This document shows, piece by piece, positions 1 through 32,460 of a DNA stretch of 64,000 nt (positions are counted from its first letter, which is position 1; every line of letters starts with the position of its first letter). The notes below the pieces were generated by a model, which was not told where the DNA came from, did no database searches, and saw only the letters and a list, made by a program, of their open reading frames with translations. The position numbers were made by a program, and so were the translations under genes. This stretch comes from Chloroflexota bacterium. Lineage in GTDB: Bacteria; Chloroflexota; Limnocylindria; Limnocylindrales; CSP1-4. Location: NCBI GenBank assembly GCA_042408925.1, contig JBHOQO010000139.1, positions 3,655 to 67,654 on the forward strand, given 5' to 3'.

Positions 1-2
1 GG

Positions 3-776
3 ATGGACCTCGACGACCTGCGGGCGGGCGCGCGGGCGGCCGTCCGGTCGCCCCACCTCGAGCTCCTCGGCGTCCACGCGTTCGGCGCCTCGAACGTCCT
101 CGACGCCTCGGCCGTGGCGGCCCACGTCGCCGCGACGATCGAGCTCGGGGCCGAGCTGGCCCGGAGCGTCGGGTTCCCGCTCCGGCTCGTCGACGTCGGC
201 GGCGGGCTCGGGATCCCGTACGAGCCGCACGAGGAATCGCTGGACCTCGTCGGGCTCGGGGCCCGGCTCCGCTCGCTCGCCGCCCGGCTCCGCGACGACC
301 CGGTCACCCGCGAAACCCGGGTCCTCTTTGAGCCGGGCCGCTTCCTCGTCGGTCCGGCGGGGGCGTACCTCGCCCGGGTCGTCGACCGGAAGTCGGTGAA
401 CGGGACGGCGGTCGTCGTCCTCGACGGCGGCGTCCACCACGTCCTCCGCCCAGCCCTCGTCGGCCAGGAGCACCGGGTCCGACCCGTCGCTGGTCGGGGG
501 GTGTCGGGGAGCAAGCAGTGGCCGGTCACCGTGGCCGGGCCGCTCTGCTCGGGCCTCGACGTCCTCGCCTCGGCGGCGGTCATGGTCGTGCCGGAGCCGG
601 GGGATCTCGTCGCGGTCCTCGACGTCGGCGCCTACGGCTTCACCGAATCGATGCCGTTCTTCCTCTCCCACCCGATTCCGGCCGAGGTCGCGGTCCGCGA
701 CGGCCGGGCGGAGCTGATCCGGCCCCGGATCGAGCCGGAGGCCTGGTTGGAGCAGCAGCGGCTCCCCGACTGGTAG
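3..776 (+). CDS. lysA: Diaminopimelate decarboxylase (Orn/DAP/Arg decarboxylase family 2), C-terminal portion; 5' end lies outside the window
   Basis: The translation carries the PLP-fold decarboxylase barrel and C-terminal domain motifs: VDVGGGLGIPY, GPLCSGLDVL and EPGDLVAVLDVGAYGFTESMPFFLSHP. The ORF is open at the window edge. Confidence 0.7.
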   Translation: MDLDDLRAGARAAVRSPHLELLGVHAFGASNVLDASAVAAHVAATIELGAELARSVGFPLRLVDVGGGLGIPYEPHEESLDLVGLGARLRSLAARLRDDPVTRETRVLFEPGRFLVGPAGAYLARVVDRKSVNGTAVVVLDGGVHHVLRPALVGQEHRVRPVAGRGVSGSKQWPVTVAGPLCSGLDVLASAAVMVVPEPGDLVAVLDVGAYGFTESMPFFLSHPIPAEVAVRDGRAELIRPRIEPEAWLEQQRLPDW

Positions 777-879
777 GGGCACGTCGCGTCGCCGAGCACG
801 CCGGCGATCGGGGCCGCTGGCCGGGCAGCAGCGGATCCCGGACTGGTAGGCGTCACGTCGCGGACACGGATCTTCTCAG

Positions 880-1230
880 ATACTCCCACGGCGAGTGAAC
901 CGCGCGACGGGCCCGGGAATTTCCACGCCGTCGACGCCGTCTCCGTGCTCGGCCGTGCTCGGCGAGGGCCCGATCCGGCCCTCCTGACTTCTGGAACACT
1001 CCCAGCGTGAGTAACGAGGAAAAACCGACTCGCGGTCTACTACCCCGGCGAGTATTCGAGAATTCCCGCCGCCGGCGGCGCGACCCTTACTACCCCCAGG
1101 AGTAATCGAGAATTCCGACCGGCTCCGGCGGCCACGCCGAGCCTTCGACTGTCTCGGCCGCGGCGTTCGTCGCAGGAGTCATCGAGGATTCCGACCGGCT
1201 CCGGCGGCCACGGTACCGGCCCGCCGAGGC
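880..1230. repeat. Degenerate tandem repeat array, about 5 units of 55-65 bp with core CTACCCC-GG-GAGTA-TCGAGAATTCCGACCGGCTCCGGCGGCCACG. It is intergenic between convergent genes.
   Basis: Direct reading shows repeated blocks: 'tactcccacggcgagtgaac', 'acactcccagcgtgagtaacgag', 'ctaccccggcgagtattcgagaattcc', 'ctacccccaggagtaatcgagaattccgaccggctccggcggccacg' and 'cgcaggagtcatcgaggattccgaccggctccggcggccacgg'. Confidence 0.6.
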
Positions 1231-1264
1231 CCGAGCGCGAACCCGGCCGCCGGGCCCGGCGACG

Positions 1265-1678
1265 TCAGCTCCGCATCCGCAGATCGATGCTGAAGTCGAC
1301 GAAGGCCCGCAGCCGGGCGAGGGCGTCCGCCCAGCCTTCGATGGCCGCCGCCCAGGCCTCGAGGCCGCCCGGGGCGTCGAGCGGAAACGGGCCGTCCTCG
1401 AGGACGAGCCGGCTGCCGTACCCGTCGCGCTCGAGCCGGATCGTCGCCGTCGTCACGACCGAGTCGTCCGGCCCCCAGGGGCGGCGGACGACGAGGGAGC
1501 GGCCCGGTTCGATCGAGAGGACGTCCCACCAGACCCGCTCGTGCGGCCAGATGAGCGTCGAGCGCGTTCCGGCGGCGAGGGACCCTTCGATCCGTTCCGG
1601 GAACCAGCGGACGATCTCCTCGGGATCGGAGAGGCAGCGGAGGACCCGCTCCGGCGAGGCCGAGAAGCGTCGCTCCAT
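1265..1678 (-). CDS. SRPBCC superfamily protein (Aha1/activator-of-Hsp90-ATPase-like domain)
   Basis: The C-terminal 138 aa of track ORF 1265..2278 (MERRFSASPERVLRCLSDPEEIVRWFPERIEGS...) fit the AHSA1/SRPBCC fold pattern. The upstream low-complexity Arg/Pro part of the ORF is treated as a GC artifact. The ATG is at about 1676-1678. Confidence 0.55.
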   Translation of the reverse strand: MERRFSASPERVLRCLSDPEEIVRWFPERIEGSLAAGTRSTLIWPHERVWWDVLSIEPGRSLVVRRPWGPDDSVVTTATIRLERDGYGSRLVLEDGPFPLDAPGGLEAWAAAIEGWADALARLRAFVDFSIDLRMRS

Positions 1679-1755
1679 GCGGACCCAGCGCCTCGGCTCC
1701 ACCCCGGGCGGCACGGCGGCCGCGCCCGCTTCGTCCGGCGACGGGCCGACCCCGC

Positions 1756-2343
1756 TCACAGGCCGAGCTCCCGCTCGACGGTCCGGAGCCCCGCGATCAC
1801 GTTCGCGACGTGGGTCTCGAACGGGACCCCGAGCTCCGCCGCGCCGGCGGTGAGCTGCTCGCGGTCGACCTGCCGGGCGAAGCCCTTGTCTCGCAGCTTC
1901 TTCGTCACCGCAGCGACGTCGACCTCGGCGAGGCGCTTGTTCGGCCGGACGAGGGCCACGGCGATGACGAAGCCGGCCATCTCGTCGCAGGCGTAGACGG
2001 TTCGGGCCAGGTCGCTCGTCCGCGGGTGGCCGGTGTGGTCGCCGTGTCCGAGGACGGCGTCGACGACGGGCTCCGGGTAGCCGAGCCGGCGGAGCTCTTC
2101 CACGCCCCGGAGCGGGTGCTCGTCGGGGTAGCGCTCGTAGTCGAAGTCGTGGAGGAGGCCGGCGATCCGCCAGAGCTCGAGATCGGGGTCCCGGACGCCG
2201 AAGTGGTTCGCCCCGTACCAGGCGACGGCGGCCTCGACGGCCAGGCCGTGCTTGCGGAGCGAGGGCGAGGTCGTCCACTCGCAGAGGAGGCGCCAGGCGT
2301 CCTCCCTCGTCGGGGTGCCGGTGGGCGCGTCGCGGTTCGCCAT
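1756..2343 (-). CDS. HD-domain metal-dependent phosphohydrolase (HDIG-type)
   Basis: HD motif: GLLHDFDYERYPDEHPLRG ... VLGHGDHTG ... YACDEMAGF. I trimmed the start to the internal ATG (MANRDAPTG) at about 2343; the N-terminal part of the track ORF is low-complexity. Confidence 0.6.
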   Translation of the reverse strand: MANRDAPTGTPTREDAWRLLCEWTTSPSLRKHGLAVEAAVAWYGANHFGVRDPDLELWRIAGLLHDFDYERYPDEHPLRGVEELRRLGYPEPVVDAVLGHGDHTGHPRTSDLARTVYACDEMAGFVIAVALVRPNKRLAEVDVAAVTKKLRDKGFARQVDREQLTAGAAELGVPFETHVANVIAGLRTVERELGL

Positions 2344-2474
2344 GGCGCGATCGAGGGTAGCACCCGCGGCGATCCGCGGCGGGCCGAACCGGGACCGTAG
2401 GAAACGCCAGGGCGCCGCGGCCGACGAACCGGCCGCGGCGCCCGTCACACGGTGGGGCAGCGAAGGAGCGACGC

Positions 2475-3530
2475 CTAGCGGATCAGGCCGAGGAAGAGCT
2501 GCGGATCCCCCGGCTGCGGCGGCCCCCCGACCCCCGCCGAGACCGACGGCAGGCCGTAGTACTCGCTGAAGACACCCGAGAGCCAGGAGACGGCCGGCCC
2601 GTTGCCCTCGTACCCGGTCAGGGTAAAGGCCGCCGCCCCGACGATCGTGAAGACGGCGTTGTTGCCGTTGCACGGATCGCAGCCCGAGACGACCGGAATG
2701 AGGACGGTCTGGCCGACCCACTTGTCGAGGCAGGCCCGGACGTCGTTCGCGTTCGTCGCGCCGGGGTCGCCCGGGAAGTCGGCCGGGAAGTCGAAGGCCG
2801 GGTTGTTCGGATTGCAGATGGCCGCGGCGAGGGCGCCGGCGTTGTTCGAGCCGGTCCAGGAGATCCAGCCAAAGTTGCCGGGGCCGAAGTTCGGGCTGCT
2901 TCCGCCACCCTTGGTGGTCCCGGTCTCGGTGAGGACGTACTCCCGGCCCGGCTCGAACGGCTGGGGCGGATTCGTCCCGATCGGAAGGAGGATCCCGCCT
3001 GGGACTCCGGTCAGTCGCCCCGCGATCGCCGTCGCGCCGGCCCCGACGGTCCAGCTCGTCTGCCCGACGACCCCGAGGAAGAACGTCCTGGGGCTCCGGG
3101 TCACCGTCACGGCGACACCCTGGGTATTCGGTGGCAGGCCGCTCGGCTCGTTCACGACCGGTCCGAGAACGTTCTCCTGCCGGTCGACAAAGTTCGCCGT
3201 CCAGGTACAGGGCGGCGTCCCGGAGGCGCGGCAGCCGTTGGCCTGGGCGATCGAATCGATCGCGGCATAGACGGTTGCGCTCGTCACCGTCGTCAGCGGT
3301 CCCGCTTGGTAGTGGTCGGCGACGATCTTCGTCCCGGCCAGGGCGGCGGTGTCGGCGACGTTCTGGGCCTCGCGGCGGTTCAGGAAGGCGAAGCCGCCGT
3401 CGATGACGAGCCCGACGAAGAGGATGATCGTGATGAGTCCGCCCACGAAGACGACGAGGACCTGACCTCGCTCGGAGTCGCCGAGCACCGGGCGGCGGAG
3501 GTGACCGGCGACAGCGGAGAAGCGCACCAT
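2475..3530 (-). CDS. TadG-like / putative Flp-pilus-assembly TadE/G-like protein (Tad N-terminal domain followed by a large extracellular region)
   Basis: The N-terminus SERGQVLVVFVGGLITIILFVGLVIDGGFAFLNRREAQNVADTAALAG matches the Tad-like pseudopilin N-terminal domain. Confidence 0.55.
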   Translation of the reverse strand: MVRFSAVAGHLRRPVLGDSERGQVLVVFVGGLITIILFVGLVIDGGFAFLNRREAQNVADTAALAGTKIVADHYQAGPLTTVTSATVYAAIDSIAQANGCRASGTPPCTWTANFVDRQENVLGPVVNEPSGLPPNTQGVAVTVTRSPRTFFLGVVGQTSWTVGAGATAIAGRLTGVPGGILLPIGTNPPQPFEPGREYVLTETGTTKGGGSSPNFGPGNFGWISWTGSNNAGALAAAICNPNNPAFDFPADFPGDPGATNANDVRACLDKWVGQTVLIPVVSGCDPCNGNNAVFTIVGAAAFTLTGYEGNGPAVSWLSGVFSEYYGLPSVSAGVGGPPQPGDPQLFLGLIR

Positions 3531-3540
3531 CGTGACCTCG

Positions 3541-3984
3541 CTAGTTGTTGACGACCATCCGGGAGGTGGCCGAGAGGGTTCGGGGGCCGACGAGCTGGCC
3601 GATGATCGGGGTTAGCATCCCGACCGTCGTATCGACCCGGACGACGAGGACGTTGTCCTTCGTGCAGATCGAGCGGGCCGTCCCAAAGACGTCCTCGCAG
3701 GTGACCGTCACCGTGGGGTTCGGGACGGCGGCCATGAGGGTTCGCGTCTTGGTGGCGATGTTCGTCCGATCGGCGGCGCTGATCGAGCGACCCTGGACGA
3801 TCCCCCAGCGGGCTCCCTCGCGGGCGGCCTCGGCGATCGCGTTGTTGATGTAGGCGAGCCGGCCGAGGTCGACGAGCCCGAAGAGGAGGAGGATGAACAG
3901 GGGGAAGACGAGGGCGAACTCGACGAGGGCCTGGCCGCGGGAGCGGCGCCGCTCGGCTCGGGTTCGGGTGGAGCGTCGGATCAT
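3541..3984 (-). CDS. TadE-like pseudopilin
   Basis: GQALVEFALVFPLFILLLFGLVDLGRLAYINNAIAEAAREGARWG is a classic TadE N-terminal motif. The protein is 147 aa. Confidence 0.65.
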   Translation of the reverse strand: MIRRSTRTRAERRRSRGQALVEFALVFPLFILLLFGLVDLGRLAYINNAIAEAAREGARWGIVQGRSISAADRTNIATKTRTLMAAVPNPTVTVTCEDVFGTARSICTKDNVLVVRVDTTVGMLTPIIGQLVGPRTLSATSRMVVNN

Positions 3985-3985
3985 C

Positions 3986-4963
3986 TCAGTTCACCTGGAC
4001 GTACTCGGTCTTCGTGATCGTCGTCGCGCAGGTGAGGTCTTTCGTGTCGCTGGTCGTCCGGATGGTCAGCGTCACGGTGAACTTGCCCTTCGACGACCAG
4101 CTGTGGCTGACCGTCGGCCAGCTCGTCGAGTCGGTCGAGTTGTCGCCGAAGGTCCAGAGCCAGCTCGTCGGTGCCGGGTTCGAGGTGCCGGTGAAGGTGA
4201 CGCTCTGGCCGACGTTGACCATGACCCGCCCGTTCGATCCGGGTGCCGGGTTCGAGGTGAAGTCGCCGGTCGGCTTCGTGCACATCGGCGAGGCGATCGG
4301 CGTCGGGGTCGGGACCGGGGTCGGGGTGGGCGTCGCCGTCGGGGTCGGCGTCGGGCTGTTGTACGCCGCCGGGTTGAAGACGACGGCGCTCGCCTGGGCG
4401 CCGAGGGTGACGGCGTTGCCGAAGAAGGCCCGAACGAGCGGCGTCAGGAGGGTGAACGACCGCTCGACGCGGACCCGGTACGTGTCGCCCTTGACGCAGG
4501 CAGCGAGGCTGCTCCGGGCGGTCCCGTCGGGGGCGAGGCAGGTCACGGTAACGGTCACGCCCGTGCCCGTCTCCTGGGTCACCCGGTACGTCACGTTGTT
4601 CGGGTTCGGGCAGGCGCTCGCCGTGTCGCAGTCGGGGTTCATCCCGCCGAAGATGGCGCCTTCGCGGGCGCCGTTCGTGATCGCGACGTAGGAGAAGAAC
4701 ATCCTGCCTGCGTCGATGGCCGTCCCGAGGAGGACGAGGAAGACGGGCAGGACGAGGGCGAACTCGACGAGGCTCTGGCCGCGGCCGGCTCGGTGGGCCG
4801 GCGGTCGATCGGCCGCGCCGACCCGTCCGAGGTGCCGCCTCAGGGCCGGGAAGGGTCGCCGGTCAGGGGCGCTTCGAGGGTGGTCGGCTGGGGTGGGCGG
4901 TGGGCCCGGCGGCCGGGTTCGTGGTCGGTGCAACATCGGCATCCCCGTGCGGTGCATGAACAC
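3986..4963 (-). CDS. TadE-like pseudopilin with a Pro/Thr linker and a C-terminal PKD domain
   Basis: TadE motif: GQSLVEFALVLPVFLVLLGTAIDAGRMFFSY. It is followed by a PTPTPTATPTPTPVPTPTP linker and a PKD-like segment (VTFTGTS...WTFGDNSTDSTSWPTVSHSWSSKGKFTVTL). The true start within the ORF is uncertain. Confidence 0.55.
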   Translation of the reverse strand: MFMHRTGMPMLHRPRTRPPGPPPTPADHPRSAPDRRPFPALRRHLGRVGAADRPPAHRAGRGQSLVEFALVLPVFLVLLGTAIDAGRMFFSYVAITNGAREGAIFGGMNPDCDTASACPNPNNVTYRVTQETGTGVTVTVTCLAPDGTARSSLAACVKGDTYRVRVERSFTLLTPLVRAFFGNAVTLGAQASAVVFNPAAYNSPTPTPTATPTPTPVPTPTPIASPMCTKPTGDFTSNPAPGSNGRVMVNVGQSVTFTGTSNPAPTSWLWTFGDNSTDSTSWPTVSHSWSSKGKFTVTLTIRTTSDTKDLTCATTITKTEYVQVN

Positions 4964-5161
4964 GCCGGAGATGCTCGACCGCTTCCCTTACGGCCGGCCT
5001 TGAAATGGTGCGCCGCCGCATAGCCCATTCGTTCATACGGGGCTGGTGCCATCAACGGCGGAACCGGCGACCCACCGGCATCGGTTTCGAGCTCCCCGAC
5101 ATGTGGAGGCCGACGATACCGGCCGGCCCTTGCAGGTTACCTTACAGGGCCGGCACGCCCC

Positions 5162-6694
5162 CTAACTTTCCGTCGGCGGCTCCGCCGGGAGGTAGACGCT
5201 GAAGGCCGCGCCCGGCTCGCCCGGTCGCGACGGCTCGAGGACGAGGTCGCCGCCCATCGCCCGGCAGAGCTCCCGCGACACGTAGAGCCCGAGCCCGCTG
5301 CCGTCCTCGGCCGTGCCGCCTCCGCGCCCGAACCGACTGAAGAGGCGCGGCCGATCGGCGTCGGCGATCCCGGGGCCCCGGTCGGCGACCGTCAGCCGAA
5401 GGCGGCCGCCCTCGACGTCGCGGGCGACCTCCACCTCGACGGCGGCGCCCCGGCCGTGCCTCGTGGCGTTGTCGAGGAGCGCCCAGAGGACCTGGTCGAG
5501 CTGGTCCGGATCGGCGATGGCGAGCCAGCCCTCGGAGCGGTCCTCGAGCCGGAAGGGGACGTCGCCGGCGGCGAGCGCCTCCCAGGCCCGCCGGACGCGC
5601 GGCCCGAGGGCGACGACTTCCGCCTGAGGCTTGAGGGCTCCCGATTCGAGCCGCGAGACGGTGAGGAGCTGGCGAACCATCCGCGAGAGGCGGTCGGCCT
5701 GCTCGACGATGATCCCGAGCCTTCGGTCGGCGCGTTCGCCGGCAAGCTGGTCGGCGTAGGCCCGGATCCGGGCGAGCGGGGTCTGGAGGTTGTGGCTGAC
5801 GCCCCGGAGGAAGTCGTCCTTCGCCGCATCGAGGGCCCGGAGCTGCTCGTTTTGGGCTTCGACTCGGGCGAAGAGCTCGGCGTTCCGGATCGCGATCGCG
5901 ACCTCGCGGGCGAAGAGCTCGAGGAGGTCCTGGTCGGCCCGCTCCCAGTGACGGGTCGCCGGGAGGCGACCGACGAGGACGCCGAGTCGCTCGTCCCCGA
6001 TCCGGAGCTCCGCGCGGACCGGTCGGCTCAGGCCCGGGACGACCTCTTCCTCCGGGACCCGGCCCGGGTCGCCGAGGACGACGCTCGCGTCGAGGAGGCC
6101 GAAGGCCTCGCGGGCATCGACGGCGGCGCGGCCGGCGAGGAACTCGACGCCGTCGCGGATCGAGATTTGTTCGATGGCGGCCCGGATCCGGGCGAGCTCG
6201 CGGTTCCGGCGCTCGAGGTCGGCGGCGAGGCGGTTGTGGCTTTCGGCGAGTCGGGCGATCTCGTCTTCGCCGCTGATCTCGAGAGGCGTCGAGAGGTCCC
6301 CGGCCGAGACGCGCTCGACGGCCGAAGCGATCCGCCGCAGGGGCGCACCGAGGTCGGCGGCGAGGGCGAAGGCGAGGAGGACGGCGACGACGATCGTCAC
6401 CGCCAGGGCGAGGAGGAGGAGGCGGAGGACGGTATCGTCGGAGAGCCCGGGGCGGCCGACGAGGAGGACGACGGCCCCGAAGGCGGTGAGGGGGAGGACG
6501 GCGGCGCCGACGAGGGCCAGGGTGAGGCGGACCCGGAAGGGAAGGCCGAGACGCGGCCGCCAGGTCTCGGCCTCGCCGCCGGGCTGCTCTTCGGCGGCGC
6601 CGGGTTCGAGCAGCACCCCGGACGAGCTCGTCGCGCCGAGGGTGCTCGGGCCGCTGGCTCTCGGGTCGGGGGCGCCCGGGGGTTCGGTCATCGC
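5162..6694 (-). CDS. Sensor histidine kinase (TM-HAMP-GAF-like-HisKA-HATPase)
   Basis: HisKA H-box FLRGVSHNLQTPLARIRAY; HATPase motifs DNATRHG and GSGLGLYVSREL; a hydrophobic TM segment and a HAMP-like segment. I set the start at the internal ATG (MTEPPGAPDP) at about 6694 to avoid overlap with the response-regulator gene. Confidence 0.7.
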   Translation of the reverse strand, partial: AMTEPPGAPDPRASGPSTLGATSSSGVLLEPGAAEEQPGGEAETWRPRLGLPFRVRLTLALVGAAVLPLTAFGAVVLLVGRPGLSDDTVLRLLLLALAVTIVVAVLLAFALAADLGAPLRRIASAVERVSAGDLSTPLEISGEDEIARLAESHNRLAADLERRNRELARIRAAIEQISIRDGVEFLAGRAAVDAREAFGLLDASVVLGDPGRVPEEEVVPGLSRPVRAELRIGDERLGVLVGRLPATRHWERADQDLLELFAREVAIAIRNAELFARVEAQNEQLRALDAAKDDFLRGVSHNLQTPLARIRAYADQLAGERADRRLGIIVEQADRLSRMVRQLLTVSRLESGALKPQAEVVALGPRVRRAWEALAAGDVPFRLEDRSEGWLAIADPDQLDQVLWALLDNATRHGRGAAVEVEVARDVEGGRLRLTVADRGPGIADADRPRLFSRFGRGGGTAEDGSGLGLYVSRELCRAMGGDLVLEPSRPGEPGAAFSVYLPAEPPTES

Positions 6695-6731
6695 CGCCTC
6701 CCTCCGTCCGCTGGCGGCTCGAGCGACCTGA

Positions 6732-7529
6732 TCACCGATCCGGGCCTCGGGCTGAGCGCTGCTCGTCCGACGCCGGGGTCGTCGGCGTCGTGTCGGCCGA
6801 TGAGGCGGGCGGACTGGCGACGAGTCGATACCCGACGCCACGGACGGTCAGGAGGTGCCGGGGTCGGTCGGGGTCCGGCTCGATCTTCTGGCGGAGCCGT
6901 CGCATCGTGACCCAGACGTAGGACGGGTCGGCATCGTCGGTCTCCGCCCAGCCGCGGGCGATGAGCGTCTCGGTCGGGACGGTCTGGCCGAGGTTCGCGG
7001 CGAGGGCGTAGAGGAGGCGCGACTCGGTCGGGGTGAGGGCGACGACGCGGCCGCGGACCGAGGCGGTCCGGCGGTGGAGGTCGAGGGAGAGGTCGGGCCC
7101 CAGGACGAGGCTCTGGCGGGGCACGCGATCGCCGAGCCGGCGGAGGACGCGGTTGATCCGGGCGCGGAGCTCGGGGTAGTGGAAGGGCTTGGTGACGTAG
7201 TCCTCGGCGACCTCGTCGAGGAGGTCGGCCTTGCTGTCGGCGGCGTCGATGGCCGAGAGGACGATGATCGGGAGGTCGGCGATCGCCTTGATCTCGCGGG
7301 CCAGGGACAGGCCGTCGAGTCGCGGCATCATCATGTCGAGGACGATGAGGTCGGGCCAGCCGGACCGAAGGCGGCGGAGAGCTTCCTGGCCGTCGCGGGC
7401 GGTGGCGACCGCGAAGCCGTCGTCGCGGAGCTGCTCGGCGAGGACGACGAGGAGGTTCGGGTCGTCGTCGACGAGCAGGATGCGCGGGGCGTTTGGGCCG
7501 TACGGTGCACCCGCCCTGCCGGGGAGCAT
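6732..7529 (-). CDS. OmpR-family response regulator (receiver plus winged-helix)
   Basis: Receiver domain: RILLVDDDPNLLVVLAEQLRDDGFAV...DLIVLDMMMPRLDG. Winged helix: VRGVGYRLV. Confidence 0.8.
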   Translation of the reverse strand: MLPGRAGAPYGPNAPRILLVDDDPNLLVVLAEQLRDDGFAVATARDGQEALRRLRSGWPDLIVLDMMMPRLDGLSLAREIKAIADLPIIVLSAIDAADSKADLLDEVAEDYVTKPFHYPELRARINRVLRRLGDRVPRQSLVLGPDLSLDLHRRTASVRGRVVALTPTESRLLYALAANLGQTVPTETLIARGWAETDDADPSYVWVTMRRLRQKIEPDPDRPRHLLTVRGVGYRLVASPPASSADTTPTTPASDEQRSARGPDR

Positions 7530-7599
7530 GGCCCGAGGATAGCAGCGCCCGGGGGCCGATCGGCGCTGCGGGCGCTGGGTGCGGGTCGGGCGGCCGTCA

Positions 7600-7812
7600 A
7601 CGTGACCTCACCTCCGCTCTATGGGTGCGCTCGGTGACGCCGTGGCTGGACACTTCGCCTGGGACGTGCCGTTCGGTGCGCTCGGTGACGCCGTAGCTGG
7701 ACATCTCGGCCAGCTCGGGACGTAGTCGCTCCAAGTGTCCAGCTAGGCCGTCACGGGCGGCGGGGAACGAACCCGGGACCTCCAAGTGTCCAGCTAGGCC
7801 GTCACGGACGGC
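7600..7812. repeat. Intergenic repeat cluster with 4 copies of a roughly 22-bp motif (GTGACGCCGT[A/G]GCTGGACA[C/T]YTCG): 2 direct and 2 inverted, spaced about 50 bp apart
   Basis: Read directly: 'ggtgacgccgtggctggacacttcg', 'ggtgacgccgtagctggacatctcgg', and two copies of 'caagtgtccagctaggccgtcacgg', which is the reverse complement of the same motif. The cluster lies in the promoter region of the two-component-system operon. Confidence 0.7.
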
Positions 7813-7852
7813 GGGGAACGCACACCCCGCGCACCCCCGCGCACCCCCGCCC

Positions 7853-8740
7853 CTACGGCGCTCGCGGGTCGACGAAGCGGCAGCGCGGCGCGACCGGGCA
7901 GGCCCTGCAGTTCGGCCGCCGCGCCTCGCAGATCCGCCGGCCGTGCGTGATCAGGTTGACGTGCGCCTCGTACACCTGGTCGGGCCGCAGCAGTTCCAGG
8001 TAGATGTCGTGGCACTCGTCGGCCGTCGCCGTCGCCGGCACGAGCCCGATCCGCTTCGAGACCCGCTCCACGTGCCGGTCGACCGGCATGAGCGGCATCC
8101 CGAAGCAGAACATGAGGATGACCGAAGCCGTCTTCTTGCCGATCCCGTCGATCGACGTCAGCCAGTCGCGGGCTGCGAGCGGCTCCATCGCCCCGAGAAA
8201 CTCGAGCGAGAAGTCGCCCCGCTCGTCCCGGATCCGGCGCAGCGCGGCGACCAATCGCGGCGCCTTCTGCCGGGCGAGCCCCCCGGGCCGGATCGCCTCC
8301 TCGACCTCCTCGATCGGCGCCTCGGCGATCGCCGCCCAGTCCGGCGCCGGCGCCAGCTCGATCCCGAGCCCGCCCCAGCCGTCGGGCGGCGTCCCGTTCG
8401 CCCGCCGGTCGCCGACGACCGGCCCCGAGCCAGGGAAGCGGGCCCGGAGCGACTCGAAGGCCTGCTCGGCGTTCGTGTCGGCGCTGTTCTGGGCGAGGAT
8501 CGTGAGGACGAGCTCGGACGTCGGATCGAGCCGACGGCGCCAGGTCGGTCGCCCGTAGAGCGTGGCGAGCGCGTCGAGGACGAACGCGACGAGACCGGGC
8601 CGGGTTCGTGCGAGGCGCCGAGCCCAGGTTCGGGCCGGGTTCGCGGGCCGGCGTCGGCGGGTCGGCCGCCGGACCGCACGGGCGGACCGTCTCGGTCGCT
8701 TCGAGCCCTCCGGCGGCGCCGTCTCGACCTCCTCGCTCAC
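7853..8740 (-). CDS. nth: Endonuclease III (HhH-GPD base-excision glycosylase with 4Fe-4S cluster), with a basic N-terminal tail
   Basis: HhH-GPD core: LVLTILAQNSADTNAEQAF...DGIGKKTASVILMFCFGMP. Cluster ligands C-x6-C-x2-C-x5-C: CEARRPNCRACPVAPRC. The proposed GTG start at 8738-8740 overlaps the upstream gene's TGA (GTGA); the rest of the 525-aa track ORF is low-complexity. Confidence 0.7.
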   Translation of the reverse strand: MSEEVETAPPEGSKRPRRSARAVRRPTRRRRPANPARTWARRLARTRPGLVAFVLDALATLYGRPTWRRRLDPTSELVLTILAQNSADTNAEQAFESLRARFPGSGPVVGDRRANGTPPDGWGGLGIELAPAPDWAAIAEAPIEEVEEAIRPGGLARQKAPRLVAALRRIRDERGDFSLEFLGAMEPLAARDWLTSIDGIGKKTASVILMFCFGMPLMPVDRHVERVSKRIGLVPATATADECHDIYLELLRPDQVYEAHVNLITHGRRICEARRPNCRACPVAPRCRFVDPRAP

Positions 8741-9981
8741 GCCCCCGAGTGTAGGGCGACCGAAGCCCCGAGGGAGACGCCGAGGGAGACGAGCCGGGCG
8801 ATCCGTTCGCCGCAGCGCTCGAGCGGCGCCGTCCCCGCCGCCATCGCCTCTGCCACCGAGATCGGCGCCTCGACGACCGGAACGACAACGACCCCGAACT
8901 CGCCGAGATCCCGGATCCCCTCCTCCGTCACCCCGCCCCCGACGGCGACGACGGCCCGCCCGGCCGCCCGAGCCCGTCGGGCGACCCCCATCGCCGTCTT
9001 GCCGAAGGCCGTCTGGGCGTCGATCCGGCCCTCGCCGGTGAGGACGAGGTCGGCCGCCTCGAGCTTCGACTCGAACCCCGTTTCGGCCATGACGAGCTCG
9101 ACGCCGGGCTCGAACCGGAGACTCCCGAAGCGCCCGGCGAGGCAGAGGAGGGCGAAGCCGACCCCGCCGGCCGCCCCCGCCCCCGGCGTCGTCCGTTCCC
9201 GACGGCCGGTCGCCGCCTCGAGCCGATCCGCCCAGCGCGCGAGCATCGCGTCGAGGACCGCGACGTCGCCCGGGGCCGCGCCCTTCTGCGGCCCGTACGT
9301 GGCGGCCGCGCCCGTCGGGCCGAGGAGCGGGTTGCCGACGTCGCAGGCGACCGAGAGCTCCACCTCGGCGAGCCGGGGATCGAGATCCGACAGGTCGACG
9401 GTCTCGAGGGCCTCGACGACCGCCGGCCAACCGCCCCCGCCCGGCAGCCCGTCAGCGGCGAGGAGGTCGCCCGATCGGCCCCGCAGCCGCGCCCCGAGGG
9501 CGACGAGGAGCCCGGCCCCGCCGTCGGTCGTCGCGCTCCCGCCGATCCCGAGGGTGATCCGCCGCGCCCCGCCGTCGAGGGCGGCCCGGAGGAGCTCGCC
9601 CGTCCCCCCCGTCGAGACCCGGAACGGATCGCGCTCGGAGGGCGCGAGCCGCGAGAGGCCCGAGGCCTCGGCGAGCTCGACGACCGCTCCCCGTGCCGCC
9701 CCCGCCGCTGCCTCGAGCCAGCGGGCCTCCACCTCCCGGCCGAGGGGGTCGCGGACCCGTGCCGCCCGCCACGCCCAGCCGCCGGCCGCCTCGATGGCGA
9801 CGAGCGTCCCTTCGCCCCCGTCGGCGAGCGGAGCGAGGAGGACCCGATCCCCCGGCCGGGCCCGCCCCCAGCCGGTCGCCAGGGCCCGAGCGACCTCGAC
9901 GGAGGTGAGCGACCCCTTGAACGAATCCGGCGCGACAAGGACGACGAGGCGAGGCTCGTGTCGAGCGGCCGAGCCCGCCAC
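8737..9981 (-). CDS. glxK: Glycerate kinase (GlxK/GarK family)
   Basis: Strong family motifs: VLVAPDSFKGSL, PLADGGEGT, TLGIGGSATTDGGAGLL, VACDVGNPLLGPTGAAATYGPQKGA, GAGAAGGVGFALL and LVLTGEGRIDAQTAFGK. The GTG start is at about 9979-9981. Confidence 0.8.
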   Translation of the reverse strand: MAGSAARHEPRLVVLVAPDSFKGSLTSVEVARALATGWGRARPGDRVLLAPLADGGEGTLVAIEAAGGWAWRAARVRDPLGREVEARWLEAAAGAARGAVVELAEASGLSRLAPSERDPFRVSTGGTGELLRAALDGGARRITLGIGGSATTDGGAGLLVALGARLRGRSGDLLAADGLPGGGGWPAVVEALETVDLSDLDPRLAEVELSVACDVGNPLLGPTGAAATYGPQKGAAPGDVAVLDAMLARWADRLEAATGRRERTTPGAGAAGGVGFALLCLAGRFGSLRFEPGVELVMAETGFESKLEAADLVLTGEGRIDAQTAFGKTAMGVARRARAAGRAVVAVGGGVTEEGIRDLGEFGVVVVPVVEAPISVAEAMAAGTAPLERCGERIARLVSLGVSLGASVALHSGA

Positions 9982-28523: not shown

Positions 28524-28579
28524 CCGAAAGGCAGCCCGGCACCACGGCTGGTGGATGGTCTCGTGGTATGTTCCGTGGC

Positions 28580-28822
28580 ATGAGGACGAGCGTTGACAGA
28601 GCCGGACGCCTCGTGATCCCGAGGCGCCTCCGCGAGCAAGTCGGCCTCGTCGGCGGCGGCGAGGTTGAGATCGAGCTCGACGGCCTCGGGCTCCGGATCG
28701 AGCCGATTGCCGGCGATGAGGTTCGTGAAGAGGCGGGCCTTCTTGTCGTCCCTGCTCGCGGCCGCCCGATCGACGTCGAGGCCGTTCGGGCCCTCGTCGA
28801 TGCCGACCGAACCCGACACTGA
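28580..28822 (+). CDS. AbrB/MazE/SpoVT-family (looped-hinge helix) antitoxin, VapB-like
   Basis: MRTSVDRAGRLVIPRRLREQVGLVGGGEVEIELDGLGLRIEP is the swapped-hairpin AbrB-fold signature. The ATG is at about 28580. Confidence 0.7.
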   Translation: MRTSVDRAGRLVIPRRLREQVGLVGGGEVEIELDGLGLRIEPIAGDEVREEAGLLVVPARGRPIDVEAVRALVDADRTRH

Positions 28823-29042
28823 GCCGCAGGCGGATCTGCTCCCGGCTACGGTCTTCCTCGACCCCGCAGACTCGGCCGCCCTCGGCGAGGAGCTCGCGCA
28901 ACTCGGGATCGGCGGCGGTGCCGTGTACGATGCCCTCGTGGGGGCGGCGGCCCGACGCGCCGGGACCCGGCTTCTCACCGCCGACGGTCGCGCCCTCCCC
29001 ACGTACGAGACCCTCGGGGTCAACGTCGAGCGCGTCGGGTGA
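28797..29042 (+). pseudogene. Truncated PIN-domain (VapC-like) toxin remnant: only the C-terminal half is present
   Basis: LLPATVFLDPADSAALGEELAQLGIGGGAVYDALVGAAARRAGTRLLTADGRALPTYETLGVNVERV corresponds to the second half of a PIN domain. The N-terminal (D-x-N/S) half is missing. Confidence 0.4.
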
Positions 29043-29124
29043 GGCGCAGTCGATCATGAGGGTCGACTGCCATCATCGCTAGAGCCAGCGGGCGCCCCAG
29101 CGCCCGGCGCTCCGCCTGACCGTC

Positions 29125-29478
29125 CTACCGGACGGGGCGGTGATGGCGGCGGGCGAGGAGGAAGACGGCGACACCCTCGACGAGTCCGAGGGCGGTGACG
29201 GCCGCCAAGGGCAGAAGATTCGTGTTCCCGCAGAAGTCGGTCGTGCTCCGGCAGGCGGCGTACGTGGACACCGATCCGTAGGCGAGGACGAGCCCCGCTC
29301 CCACGAGCAGGCCGCCAACGAACGCCGCCTGCGACGCATCGTGACGCCAGATGGCGACCGGACCGTACAACATCGCTCCGACAACCACGGCGATCGCGAG
29401 CGGTGGCATCAGGCTCAGACCGACTGCCACGAGTAGCCCCGCCGCAAGTCCGAGAATTGAACGCGCGAGGAGGGTCAT
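29125..29478 (-). CDS. Small integral membrane protein (3-4 TM helices) in the low-GC islet
   Basis: MTLLARSILGLAAGLLVAVGLSLMPPLAIAVVVGAMLYGPVAIW...FVGGLLVGAGLVLAYG...LPLAAVTALGLVEGVAVFLLA. The start is uncertain. Confidence 0.4.
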   Translation of the reverse strand: MTLLARSILGLAAGLLVAVGLSLMPPLAIAVVVGAMLYGPVAIWRHDASQAAFVGGLLVGAGLVLAYGSVSTYAACRSTTDFCGNTNLLPLAAVTALGLVEGVAVFLLARRHHRPVR

Positions 29479-29485
29479 CCTCGCA

Positions 29486-30319
29486 TCAGCCCCACTGTCC
29501 ATATCCCGCCTCGATGTCAACGTGCAACGGTAGGCACTCGTCAACCGAGTCGCTGGATTGCCCGACGGTCGCGTTGCCGTTGTAGGCACCCCAGACACGG
29601 TTGTAATAGTAGTAGGTGTACACGGTGGGTAGGGGAGCGCAGAACCACGAGTTGCTGAAGGTCGCGTGCGTCTCGCCGCGGTAGAACGTATTGCCGCTCA
29701 GATAGGTCCCGTACCCGCCGTGCTCCCCGAGCTGCCATCTGGTGGCAGTGTTCCAGAACCAGCCACCCGAGGTGCTCCCACCAGCAACCGTTGAGCCGTT
29801 GTAGCTCCAGGTGATCTGAGTGAGATCAGCGTTCACAAGGAGCCCAACTGCGTCTCTCCAGACCACGCGTTGCCAGGCGCTGCGGGTGCTCGTGACCAGC
29901 ACAGCCTGTTGTGCCGGGGCATTGCCTGTGACTAGAAGCTCGCGGACTGAGGTGATCGCTGAGCTCCATTGGCCGACATCGGTGGGTCCACCCGCGGGAC
30001 TTCCCTCCTCCATCAGCTTGCGGCAGCCCACTGGATCAAGCGCTATGCTCCGTAGGGTCCACCCAGCCGCCGGGATCTCCCGAACCTCAGTGGTGTACTG
30101 ATAGCGACACCCACCTCCTGCGAGTCGAGTTCCCTGCAGGATCCAAGTGCGCGAGTCAGTCAACGGCGGCAGCGCTGCTCGCGTGTAACTGAAACCACTA
30201 GCGAGTGTGGTCGCGGAGACCGTTGGACGCGACGCCCCGAGCGCCAGTCCGAGCGCTAGGGAAGCAAGCACTGCGCTTCGGAGCATCCTCCAAGATTGCC
30301 TCGTGTCTCGCCGCCTCAT
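29486..30319 (-). CDS. Secreted protein of unknown function (Sec signal peptide; Trp/Tyr/Gly/Thr-rich; 4 Cys) in the low-GC islet
   Basis: Signal peptide MRRRDTRQSWRMLRSAVLASLALGLALGASRP, then a Cys-containing mature region (GGGCRYQY, PVGCRK, NSWFCAP, DECLP) rich in W/Y/G. Local GC is visibly lower than the flanks. Confidence 0.5.
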   Translation of the reverse strand: MRRRDTRQSWRMLRSAVLASLALGLALGASRPTVSATTLASGFSYTRAALPPLTDSRTWILQGTRLAGGGCRYQYTTEVREIPAAGWTLRSIALDPVGCRKLMEEGSPAGGPTDVGQWSSAITSVRELLVTGNAPAQQAVLVTSTRSAWQRVVWRDAVGLLVNADLTQITWSYNGSTVAGGSTSGGWFWNTATRWQLGEHGGYGTYLSGNTFYRGETHATFSNSWFCAPLPTVYTYYYYNRVWGAYNGNATVGQSSDSVDECLPLHVDIEAGYGQWG

Positions 30320-30580
30320 CGAGTCCCTCCTATTGTTCTTACGACCGTGGACCGTACTCTCTCTGTCTCCCTCTGTCTGTCTGTCAAGTGACACCCAACG
30401 GCACGAGTCTTATGCCGAGCCCGTGCGACTTCGATCCAGCTCAAAGGCAGCGAGGCGTACTCTTGACGCAGGGTCGACAGCGATGCAACGTTGCCAGGCC
30501 GCAACCGGCTCTTGGACGCGGGATCGTGATCGCTGGGCGATGTTCTCGCCCGCCTCGCGCTGACCGAGCGGACGCCCGCC

Positions 30581-32221
30581 CTACATCCGGAAGACCCCGA
30601 AGCGCGTCTCCCGGATCGGGGCCTGGAGAGCGGCCTCGATCCCCATGGCCAGGACCCGCCGCGTGTCGAGCGGGTCGATGACCCCGTCGTCCCAGAGCCG
30701 GGCTGTTGCGTAGTACGGGTTGCCCTCCCGCTCGTACGTCTCGAGGATCGGTGCCTCGAAGGCCGCCCGCTCCTCCTCGGACGTCCACCGCCCACCCGGC
30801 AGCGACGCCTCCCGGACCGTCGAGAGGACCCGGGCTGCCTGGGCGCCGCCCATGACGCTGATCCGGGCGTTCGGCCAGGTCCAGAGGAAGCGCGGCGAGT
30901 ACGCCCGCCCGGCCATGGCGTAGTTCCCGGCCCCGAAGCTCCCCCCGACGATGACCGTGAACTTCGGGACCTCGGCGCAGGCGACGGCGGTCACCATCTT
31001 CGCCCCGTCCTTCGCGATCCCGCCGGCCTCGTAGTCGCGGCCGACCATGAAGCCGGTGATGTTCTGGAGGAAGACGAGGGGGATCTGCCGCTGGGCGGCG
31101 AGCTCGATGAAGTGGGCACCTTTGAGCGCCGACTGGGAGAAGAGGACGCCGTTGTTCGCCAGGATCGCGACCGGATAGCCCTCGAGGTGGGCGAAGCCGC
31201 AGACGAGGGTCTCGCCGTAGAGCGGCTTGAACTCGTGGAAACGGGAGCCGTCGACGAGGCGGGCGATGACCTCCCGAATGTCGAGGGAGCGACGGAGGTC
31301 GGTCGGGATCGCGGCGTAGAGGTGGGCGACGCCGGCCCTCGGGTCGCCCTCGGCCGGGACGGCCGGCGGTTCGGGCGGCCGGCGTTCCCAGGGCGGTTCG
31401 GGCGGGCGGCGGGCGAGGTGGCGAACGATGTCGCGCCCGAGGGCGATGGCGTGCTCGTCGTCGAGGGCTTCGTGGTCGACGACGCCCGAGCGGCGGGCGT
31501 GGACCTCCGCTCCGCCCAGTTCCTCGGCGCTCACCTCCTCGCCGGTTGCGGCCTTCACGAGCGGCGGCCCGCCGAGGAAGATCGTCCCGGTCCCGCGGAC
31601 GATGACGGTCTCGTCGCTCATCGCCGGGACGTAGGCCCCGCCGGCAGTGGAACTCCCCATGACGAGGGCGATCTGGGGGATCCCGGCCGCCGACATCCGG
31701 GCCTGGTTGTAGAAGATCCGCCCGAAGTGGTCGCGGTCGGGGAAGACGTCGGCCTGGAGGGGGAGGTAGGCGCCGCCCGAATCGACGAGGTAGACGCACG
31801 GGAGCCGGTTCTCGAGGGCGATCTCCTGGGCCCGGAGGTGCTTCTTCACCGTCATCGGGTAGTAGGTCCCGCCCTTCACGGTGGCGTCGTTGGCGACGAC
31901 GACGCAGAGGGTCCCCTCGATCCGGCCGATCCCGGTGACGATCCCCGCCCCGGGGGCCTCGTCGTCGTACATGCCGGTGGCGGCGAGGGGCGAGAGCTCG
32001 AGGAAGGCGCTCCCGGGGTCGAGGAGGCGCTCGATCCGTTCGCGGACCGGGAGCTTGCCGCGCTCGCGGTGGCGAGCGATCGCCCGCTCGTCGCCGGCGG
32101 CGCCTCGCTCGACGAGGGCGCGCTGGCGGGCGCGGAGGTCGGCGACGAGGGCGCGCATCGCCGCCTCGTTCGTCCGGGCCTCGGGGTCGGCGGGATCGAG
32201 GCGGCTCCGCAGGACGGCCAT
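30581..32221 (-). CDS. Methylcrotonyl-CoA carboxylase beta subunit (carboxyltransferase)
   Basis: Full-length match to the acyl-CoA carboxyltransferase beta pattern: [58 protein letters not shown] and [14 protein letters not shown]. Confidence 0.85.
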
Positions 32222-32460
32222 GGCGAGCCGATGATACGGGCCGGCGGCTGGTTCCGAGCCGCGTGGCCGTCCACGCGAAGGGCGGCGCCTTTGGTGCCTC
32301 CTCGGTCAGGGAGGCGGCCAGGAGTTCGGAGACGAGGCGCCCAAGCGACTTGCCTTCGCGGCGCTGCCGCTCCTTGAGTCGCCGCAGGACGACCGGGTCG
32401 ATGTCGATCGTCGTCCGCGTCATAAGCGTGACGATCGAGCAGACGTCATCAGATGTCAAG

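Follow-up and report, generated by a model that had tools for sequence, protein, structure and literature searches.

A low-GC islet in a Limnocylindrales contig encodes a predicted secreted all-beta protein and a small membrane protein, a possible toxin and immunity pair

Gene content and base composition of the islet

The window analysed here, a stretch of 64,000 nucleotides from a Chloroflexota bacterium of the order Limnocylindrales (GenBank assembly GCA_042408925.1, contig JBHOQO010000139.1, positions 3,655 to 67,654 of the forward strand), contains a 1.2-kb module of two co-oriented genes, here called A and B, which lie downstream of an acyl-CoA carboxyltransferase gene (Table 1). Gene A encodes the precursor of a predicted secreted protein and gene B a small membrane protein, and the two reading frames share 17 nt, at the end of A and the start of B. 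An Rfam scan of the islet region gave no match. In what follows, L numbers are labels of compared loci or contigs and P numbers are labels of relatives in the A family.

The two genes occupy the stretch with the lowest G+C (GC) content of the window. Against a mean of 0.731 for the 64 kb, the region 29400-30560 has a GC of 0.625; the GC profile reaches its minimum over all 1160-bp segments, 0.622, in the segment starting at 29331, whereas segments of this size outside the islet have a mean of 0.734 (standard deviation 0.023) and a minimum of 0.666. Third codon positions (GC3) drop too, to 0.71 in gene A and 0.80 in gene B versus 0.95 in the adjacent carboxyltransferase gene, so the fall in GC is not merely a matter of amino-acid composition. 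The low-GC islet to which a preliminary description of this DNA had drawn attention is therefore real: composition is not uniform across the window, and the codon usage of the islet is atypical.

Table 1. Features of the islet and its flanks (window coordinates) and domains of protein A (residue numbers). aa, amino acids; ORF, open reading frame.
Feature	Position	Strand	Remarks
MazE/AbrB-type antitoxin gene, convergent with A-B	28571..28822	+	Pfam PF04014, E 2e-7
Candidate partner toxin remnant, 80 aa (VapC/PIN-like by motif)	28800..29042	+	132 aa in L105
Gene B	29125..29502	-	Membrane protein, 125 aa; ATG 29502, stop 29125-29127; ORF list
Gene A	29486..30319	-	Secreted protein precursor, 277 aa; ATG 30319, stop 29486-29488; ORF list
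Segment missing in L107 (98% identical to window)	29587..30573		~987 bp; blastn coordinates, alignment
Segment missing in L105	29747..30547		~800 bp; removes A promoter and 5' two-thirds; blastn, alignment
5' leader and putative promoter of A	30320..30400	-	Sequence reading, comparison with L106
Low-GC spacer between A promoter region and carboxyltransferase stop	30401..30580		Weak or absent alignment to L106
Acyl-CoA carboxyltransferase gene (methylcrotonyl-CoA carboxylase beta-like), core flank	30581..32221	-	Synteny anchor
A N-domain	residues ~45-110		Carries C71 and C99
A linker	residues 111-143		Variable, disordered
A C-domain	residues 144-277		8-strand; carries C227 and C262

Gene A is preceded by a Shine-Dalgarno sequence (GGAGGG, 30325-30330) located 5 nt upstream of its ATG. 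Further upstream on the minus strand are a TACGGT hexamer resembling a -10 element (30351-30356), a purine-rich (GA)n/(GACA)3 tract (30357-30381) and a TTGACA (30382-30387), a putative promoter in which the two hexamers are 25 nt apart with the tract in between. The orthologous locus L106 lacks 8 nt of the tract and has the arrangement TTGACA-17 nt-TATGGT, and homology of the window to this locus stops at about 30400. Such a change in repeat length within the spacer could tune or switch the expression of A. A strict promoter and terminator scan of the islet detected nothing. The AT-rich string quoted in the preliminary description maps to approximately 30327-30393, where it is the reverse complement of this leader and promoter region. 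A 302-aa ORF starting at GTG was also considered as gene A and was rejected, because the 8-nt insertion or deletion lies upstream of the ATG in L106, an ortholog with 90% identity.

Protein A

Protein A has a Sec-type signal peptide at approximately residues 1-36, as read from the sequence (an Arg-rich n-region, a 14-residue hydrophobic core and VSA), in agreement with what had been described initially. By hydropathy the protein is hydrophobic only at residues 12-31, the AlphaFold2 model has its N-terminal helix at 8-26, and the N-termini of all A homologs are equivalent in the alignment. The mature protein, for which a length of 278 aa had been given, is predicted to have about 241 aa (26 kDa, isoelectric point 5.9), 277 aa being the length of the precursor. 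Mature A contains 5.0% W and 5.8% Y, with 6.7% W and 8.2% Y in the C-domain, and the listed motifs GGGCRYQY, VGCRK, WFCAP, DECLP, YTYYYYN and WFWN are all present.

A first homolog search with A returned 50 homologs at 34-61% identity, all unnamed and without a Pfam domain. This search was word-seeded, with 61% for its best hit, and it missed the 90%-identical ortholog in L106, which surfaced only via a search with B; close relatives can thus escape it. An exhaustive profile search found 890 representatives of the A family (50%-identity clusters) at E<=1e-3, 456 of them at E<=1e-10, most members being stand-alone proteins of 250-290 aa. Every aligned sequence has C71 and C99, at least 90% keep C227 and C262, and there is a strongly conserved block, PLPTVYTYYYYNR.WG..NG.A...QSSDSVDECLPLH. 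Among 150 relatives listed, one clear multidomain case was seen in P0194 (764 aa), where a CBM96 domain is followed by a whole A module at C-terminal residues 537-759.

No recognisable family had been expected, and none emerged. Searches of Pfam and NCBIfam (E<=1) gave 0 families for A or B, PADLOC gave 0 matches for either protein, and the best PHROGs match was only at E=0.12. With 109 diverse A relatives as queries, Pfam matched nothing on the A module, the sole match being the unrelated N-terminal CBM96 of P0194. Cluster look-ups for the A family returned 'hypothetical protein' only, a homology search with the broad alignment brought no named proteins, and no description of such a family was found in literature searches.

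Structure prediction, which the preliminary description had proposed, gave a confident all-beta model of full-length A (predicted local distance difference test, pLDDT, 85.9; predicted template modelling score, pTM, 0.77), with 4 strands at residues 53-108, a disordered linker at 110-143 and 8 long meander strands at 144-273. Modelled alone, the C-domain reached a pLDDT of 95.5 and a pTM of 0.88. Foldseek found no neighbour in the PDB at E<=1e-3 for either the full-length or the C-domain model; the best PDB score was a TMq of 0.36, to a hypothetical Listeria protein, and OmpX/Ail scored ~0.23. Two matches to full-length A in BFVD had E values of ~5e-4, but their TMq was just 0.12-0.18. Sequence-profile searches of the PDB with the A alignments returned nothing, and the model has no significant structural similarity to the beta-pore-forming toxins (aerolysin/ETX-MTX2) or to OmpX/Ail barrels. 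Judged by the model, the fold of A may be new.

The predicted C-domain, eight long antiparallel strands with nearest-neighbour connectivity, does recall the OmpX/Ail/NspA barrels, which headed its Foldseek list but fell short of significance, with TM-scores of only 0.2-0.23 and E values above 0.05. An outer-membrane beta-barrel was rejected for A on the basis of the low TM-scores, the disulfides and the absence of an alternating hydrophobic pattern in the strands, the last by direct reading of the sequence. To our knowledge, Chloroflexota are generally regarded as having no outer membrane.

Relative to the L106 orthologs, the ratio of nonsynonymous to synonymous substitution rates (dN/dS) is 0.28 for A overall, with values, from small counts, of 0.057 in the C-domain, 0.81 in the N-domain and 0.54 in the linker, and 0.45 for B. 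Both proteins are under purifying selection, which argues that A and B are functional genes.

Protein B and its coupling to A

The co-oriented small polytopic membrane protein noted in the preliminary description is B, encoded on the minus strand and with four transmembrane segments predicted by hydropathy: two helices split by PP within residues 9-52, and one each at 58-80 and 94-118. By the positive-inside rule, the Arg-rich loops would place the N-terminus, the loop between the second and third segments and the C-terminus inside, and the loop between the third and fourth segments outside. In a 14-member alignment G22, G68, C84 and C91 are invariant, the two cysteines forming a conserved C-x(5-9)-C in the outer loop, which is only ~12-16 residues long. 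Pfam searches with B and 14 of its relatives, and a PDB profile search with the B alignment, found nothing. The B relatives are more divergent than those of A, with only 18-34% mutual identity versus 37-61%.

Within the A subfamily, a B-like ORF lies directly downstream of A, with an overlap or a short gap, in every locus with enough sequence (~20 distinct loci). The pairing loci include four large contigs, 19 metagenome loci from JGI, L111, L112-L117 and L118-L123, and an hmmsearch with a B profile over all fetched loci confirmed the position of B downstream of A. An all-vs-all comparison of ORFs extending 4 kb to either side in 15 loci revealed no third conserved gene.

Genomic contexts of the pair

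In 17 of 17 loci measured, as in the window, the GC of the pair (0.59-0.68) is below that of its flanks. Homologous pairs elsewhere have mobile or conflict-related genes as neighbours. For example, in L112 the pair lies at the integrase end of an element that also carries ISL3, a D5 primase and an excisionase-like helix-turn-helix gene; in L001 it adjoins an integrase and a relaxase; in L118 it adjoins IS21; and in L111 it is beside a cyclic-oligonucleotide-based antiphage signalling system (CBASS), Mrr and an integrase. In L004, positions 1-7740 immediately upstream of A-B are taken up by an RHS-repeat/LamG polymorphic toxin of more than 2400 aa and an overlapping 153-aa multi-transmembrane protein. 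In L002 the pair adjoins a serine recombinase, RusA and PDDEXK and is duplicated 9 kb apart.

The duplication in L002/L003 (ENA ERZ25039539 contig_46887) consists of A-B and ~600 bp upstream, present as a 1992-bp direct repeat with 97.9% identity; one copy is at 7396-9387 and the second lies 9067 bp downstream, at the contig end. AAA_25, PDDEXK, RusA and serine recombinase genes lie between the copies, and a 468-bp repeat (93% identity) with small GerE/LuxR-like ORFs brackets the first. Just upstream of A-B in L118 (4827-5366) and L110 (7433-7957) is a gene for a signal-peptide protein of 174-179 aa with a WNDRISSF-type motif and a weak, sub-threshold beta/gamma-crystallin match (E 0.008).

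The carboxyltransferase that flanks the islet shares 80-82% identity with its counterparts in Chloroflexota metagenome-assembled genomes (MAGs) labelled Limnocylindria or Limnocylindrales; this one gene and the synteny would place the window in the same lineage. In six related Chloroflexota MAGs (L006, L007, L008, L013, L014 and L015), A, B and the MazE gene are absent from the syntenic interval between this gene and the glyoxalase-like gene. The six keep the downstream glyoxalase-like or lipoprotein-like genes, and the interval itself holds, depending on the relative, nothing, a MOSC gene, an extracytoplasmic function (ECF) sigma factor or a 1142-aa protein; judged by this gene content, the interval is a cargo hotspot. 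Horizontal acquisition, as proposed in the preliminary description, draws support from the atypical composition and from the absence in the six relatives, whereas no mobility gene or tRNA beside the islet speaks for it: the window has no tRNA in its 64 kb and no integrase or transposase next to the islet, which has metabolic genes and a toxin-antitoxin module as its neighbours. An integron cassette was considered as well; the window contains no integrase. Clear attachment (att) repeats were not found in the window. The sole bracketing repeat, which encloses A-B and the promoter, is an imperfect 15-nt direct repeat, AGGGTCGAC(T/A)GC(C/G)AT, at 29059-29073 and 30470-30484; this could be an insertion scar or chance.

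Natural loss of A with retention of B

The islet is shared by species-level relatives and is therefore not unique to one strain. A search with B returned two close relatives (98% and 86% identity), and the comparison of three contigs, L105, L106 and L107, revealed that A can be lost from the site. L106 has an intact A (90% aa identity to that of the window) and B. L105, 99.2% identical to L106 where they overlap and ~91% identical to the window, has the carboxyltransferase 3' region joined to the equivalent of window position 29746, and its B protein is identical to that of L106. In L107, the carboxyltransferase stop plus 8 nt is joined to window position 29586, so that the A promoter and ~245 of 277 codons are gone and B, full length and 98% identical to that of the window, follows 92 nt after the stop. 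Both deletions leave B just downstream of the co-oriented carboxyltransferase gene, and their differing breakpoints and backgrounds indicate that they are independent.

L106 was at one point taken as a mobile 1.3-kb unit (29082 to 30400) in unrelated flanks. This was rejected: to the right, L106 matches L105, a contig syntenic with the window, at 99% identity, and what lies to the left is intergenic spacer that has diverged.

Other loci show B with a degraded A or with none. In L099-L101 a degraded C-terminal remnant of A is fused in frame to an intact B. The Limnocylindrales MAG ant_bin.103 (L011) has an orphan B-like gene at 2227-2556 (+), encoding 109 aa with the loop ACDVDCVGPD (hmmsearch E 1.7e-12), and no A on its 9.9-kb contig.

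As to the surroundings of these genes, the fusion in L100 (1727-2688; also L099 and L101) stands between a trypsin-like fragment with a SAGHC motif and an ATPase of an ABC transporter. The orphan B of L011 adjoins a divergently transcribed 256-aa ORF and a large membrane protein, ~3.5 kb upstream of a carboxyltransferase gene.

Possible roles of the pair

Our tentative preference is that A and B are a horizontally mobile pair of a secreted, bacteriocin-like toxin and a membrane immunity protein, a reading to which we give somewhat less than an even chance. It is suggested by the strict two-gene coupling, by the repeated loss of A while B is kept, by neighbourhoods rich in conflict systems and mobile elements, by the C-terminal position of the A module in P0194, which is the position of toxin domains in polymorphic toxins, and by the faster divergence of B than of A. 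Adjacency, co-orientation and co-inheritance, as expected of toxin and immunity genes, are all found in A-B; A has, as predicted from its sequence, the export signal expected on a secreted toxin; and L105, L107, L099-L101 and L011 are the immunity-only genotypes that such a pair would be expected to leave. Of the candidates named in the preliminary description, the bacteriocin and immunity partnership fits best, given a strict pair in which A was lost twice with B intact. A, which carries a Sec-type signal itself, would need no partner for secretion.

If this is so, A would be exported via its Sec-type signal peptide and fold outside the cell into a protein of ~26 kDa with two disulfides (putative pairs C71-C99 and C227-C262), in which a flexible linker joins a small beta domain at the N-terminus to a C-terminal domain of 8 strands rich in aromatic residues. 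We infer that A is toxic to competing cells, attacking their envelope or membrane as a diffusible, bacteriocin-like protein, and that it is neutralised by B. B, translationally coupled to A and carrying a tiny, disulfide-bonded outer loop on its four transmembrane segments, would protect the producer and any cell that keeps B. Since B exposes almost nothing outside the membrane, it probably acts within the membrane or at its surface, which in turn would make the membrane, or a membrane-bound envelope precursor, the likely target of A; the aromatic-rich C-domain would suit interfacial binding. The pair would travel as cargo of integrative elements, insertion sequence (IS) elements and conflict-system islands, and in the window would have landed in the variable interval downstream of the carboxyltransferase, beside a toxin-antitoxin module.

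A number of observations weigh against such a role. A has no recognisable catalytic motif and resembles no known toxin in sequence or fold. Its C-domain is highly conserved (dN/dS 0.06) and its N-domain variable, a pattern that, on small counts, runs counter to the way in which toxin and immunity specificities usually diversify. Remote members of the A family do without B: L102 has none and adjoins a restriction enzyme, and L108 is in a housekeeping context with a different, 70-aa protein with two transmembrane segments upstream. As such members stand alone or have another membrane neighbour, the wider A family need not be toxic. No relative of A was found in an IMG/VR scan of 2.9 M viral contigs, and tblastn of A gave no match in 72 k PLSDB plasmids or 50 k INPHARED phages (nor did the remote member P0170 match plasmids), so that the pair has no annotated mobile carrier. 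The deletion evidence consists of two contigs, each from one short metagenomic assembly, and B may have been kept in them neutrally and for a short time only. The whole locus appears to be decaying in L110, where A has a frameshift and B is only weakly detectable.

A and B might instead form an accessory cell-surface module in which A is a lectin-like protein, adhesin or envelope protein that B retains, matures or senses, the module being mobile because it alters the surface and killing nothing. A is rich in W, Y, G, S and T, as is typical of carbohydrate-binding beta proteins, and P0194 joins its A module to the carbohydrate-binding module CBM96; the solitary remote members in housekeeping contexts, the strong conservation of the C-domain and the extracytoplasmic pairs of cysteines in both proteins also fit. 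However, an outer loop of ~12-16 residues is small for an anchor or receptor, the retention of B after three losses of A would not be expected if B only served A, and it is rather conflict genes that typically keep company with an RHS toxin, CBASS, toxin-antitoxin modules and integrases. We regard this role as unlikely.

Were the pair a phage-resistance or superinfection-exclusion module, carried as a moron of integrative elements, A would mask or modify a surface receptor or B would block DNA entry at the membrane. This would account for the company of CBASS and Mrr in the defence island of L111, for the place of the pair at the integrase end of elements with D5 primase, or with RusA and a recombinase, and for a B that is retained alone or orphaned, small membrane proteins being common exclusion factors. 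But a B that keeps phage out by itself would not have to be strictly coupled to A, exclusion systems do not usually include a secreted protein of 26 kDa, and PADLOC and PHROGs gave no hit, with no relative in IMG/VR or INPHARED; the module is improbable as a phage defence. We consider it very improbable that the pair is what a defective prophage has left of its lysis cassette, A being the secreted lytic enzyme and B resembling a holin. A small multi-transmembrane protein does adjoin a signal-peptide protein, and some loci are phage-like (RusA, D5 primase), but neither a muralytic domain nor a matching fold was found for A, the order of the overlapping genes, with the enzyme in front, and the conserved extracytoplasmic cysteine loop of B are atypical for holins, homologs are missing from viral contigs and phage genomes, and there are no phage structural genes nearby in the window.

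Relation to known systems and significance

Large Sec-secreted bacteriocins with small polytopic membrane immunity proteins are represented by several known systems, including the immunity proteins of pore-forming colicins, the SdpC/SdpI type and CdzC/D-CdzI. As in these, the gene for a secreted protein is tightly linked in A-B to a small gene with several transmembrane segments, on mobile DNA, with a patchy distribution and immunity-only genotypes. Unlike them, A-B has no sequence or structural similarity to such proteins, A being predicted as all-beta and disulfide-bonded with an unmatched fold; no lysis, export or processing gene accompanies the pair.

Polymorphic toxin systems combine RHS- or LXG-type toxins with downstream immunity cassettes (Zhang et al. 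2012, PMC3482391). The position of B immediately 3' of A, the pair directly downstream of an RHS/LamG toxin and a transmembrane protein in L004, and, in one relative, the C-terminal A module of the multidomain P0194 recall this organisation. However, most A proteins stand alone with their own signal peptide rather than forming the C-terminal tips of large delivery proteins, and the A domain is not among the toxin domains catalogued in Pfam. With regard to its site, A-B is like the hotspot islets that collect toxin-antitoxin modules, having atypical composition, a place between core genes, variable cargo and a MazE-type module next to it, and unlike them in that the window has no integrase, transposase, tRNA or clear att repeats. 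In its predicted function, then, A-B resembles bacteriocin and immunity systems and polymorphic-toxin cassettes, while its sequence and predicted fold set it apart from all of them. A and B are two undescribed families, and A may have a new fold.

Chloroflexota are abundant and mostly uncultured bacteria of soil and freshwater, and we know of little on antagonism between bacteria in this phylum, which appears essentially uncharted. Should A prove to be a toxin and B its immunity protein, the pair would bring a toxin fold and an immunity family not seen before, together with a compact marker of strain-level competition in metagenomes. The alleles with A deleted and B retained give a testable population-genetic prediction on the dynamics of such cheaters. 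A bolder proposal is that A founds a new class of Sec-exported, disulfide-locked beta-fold toxins of the envelope or membrane, with B as a new immunity family of four transmembrane segments, the two making up a self-contained, mobile kill-and-protect cassette of soil Chloroflexota and neighbouring lineages, one of the first antagonism systems to be described between bacteria of this phylum, whose toxin-minus, immunity-plus cheaters would already be visible in metagenomes; this we find doubtful. Even if A is not a toxin, the pair comprises two new conserved families in a two-gene cargo unit that hops between mobile elements.

Neighbouring genes

The MazE-type gene convergent with A-B and the ORF that follows it have the same arrangement in L105, and the MazE gene is absent from the syntenic site in the relatives. 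The 132-aa ortholog of the toxin in L105 has a PIN-like N-terminus (LLLDTS) and a low-complexity middle, with no match in Pfam; it is this motif of L105 that makes a PIN-like assignment of the window toxin conceivable. With an intact antitoxin and a toxin cut to 80 aa, the module in the window appears to be decaying. On the other side of the islet, upstream of the carboxyltransferase gene, a short ORF at 32222-32459 (-) starts with MTRTTIDIDPVVLRRLKERQRREGKSLG and resembles a ribbon-helix-helix antitoxin, with no match in Pfam.

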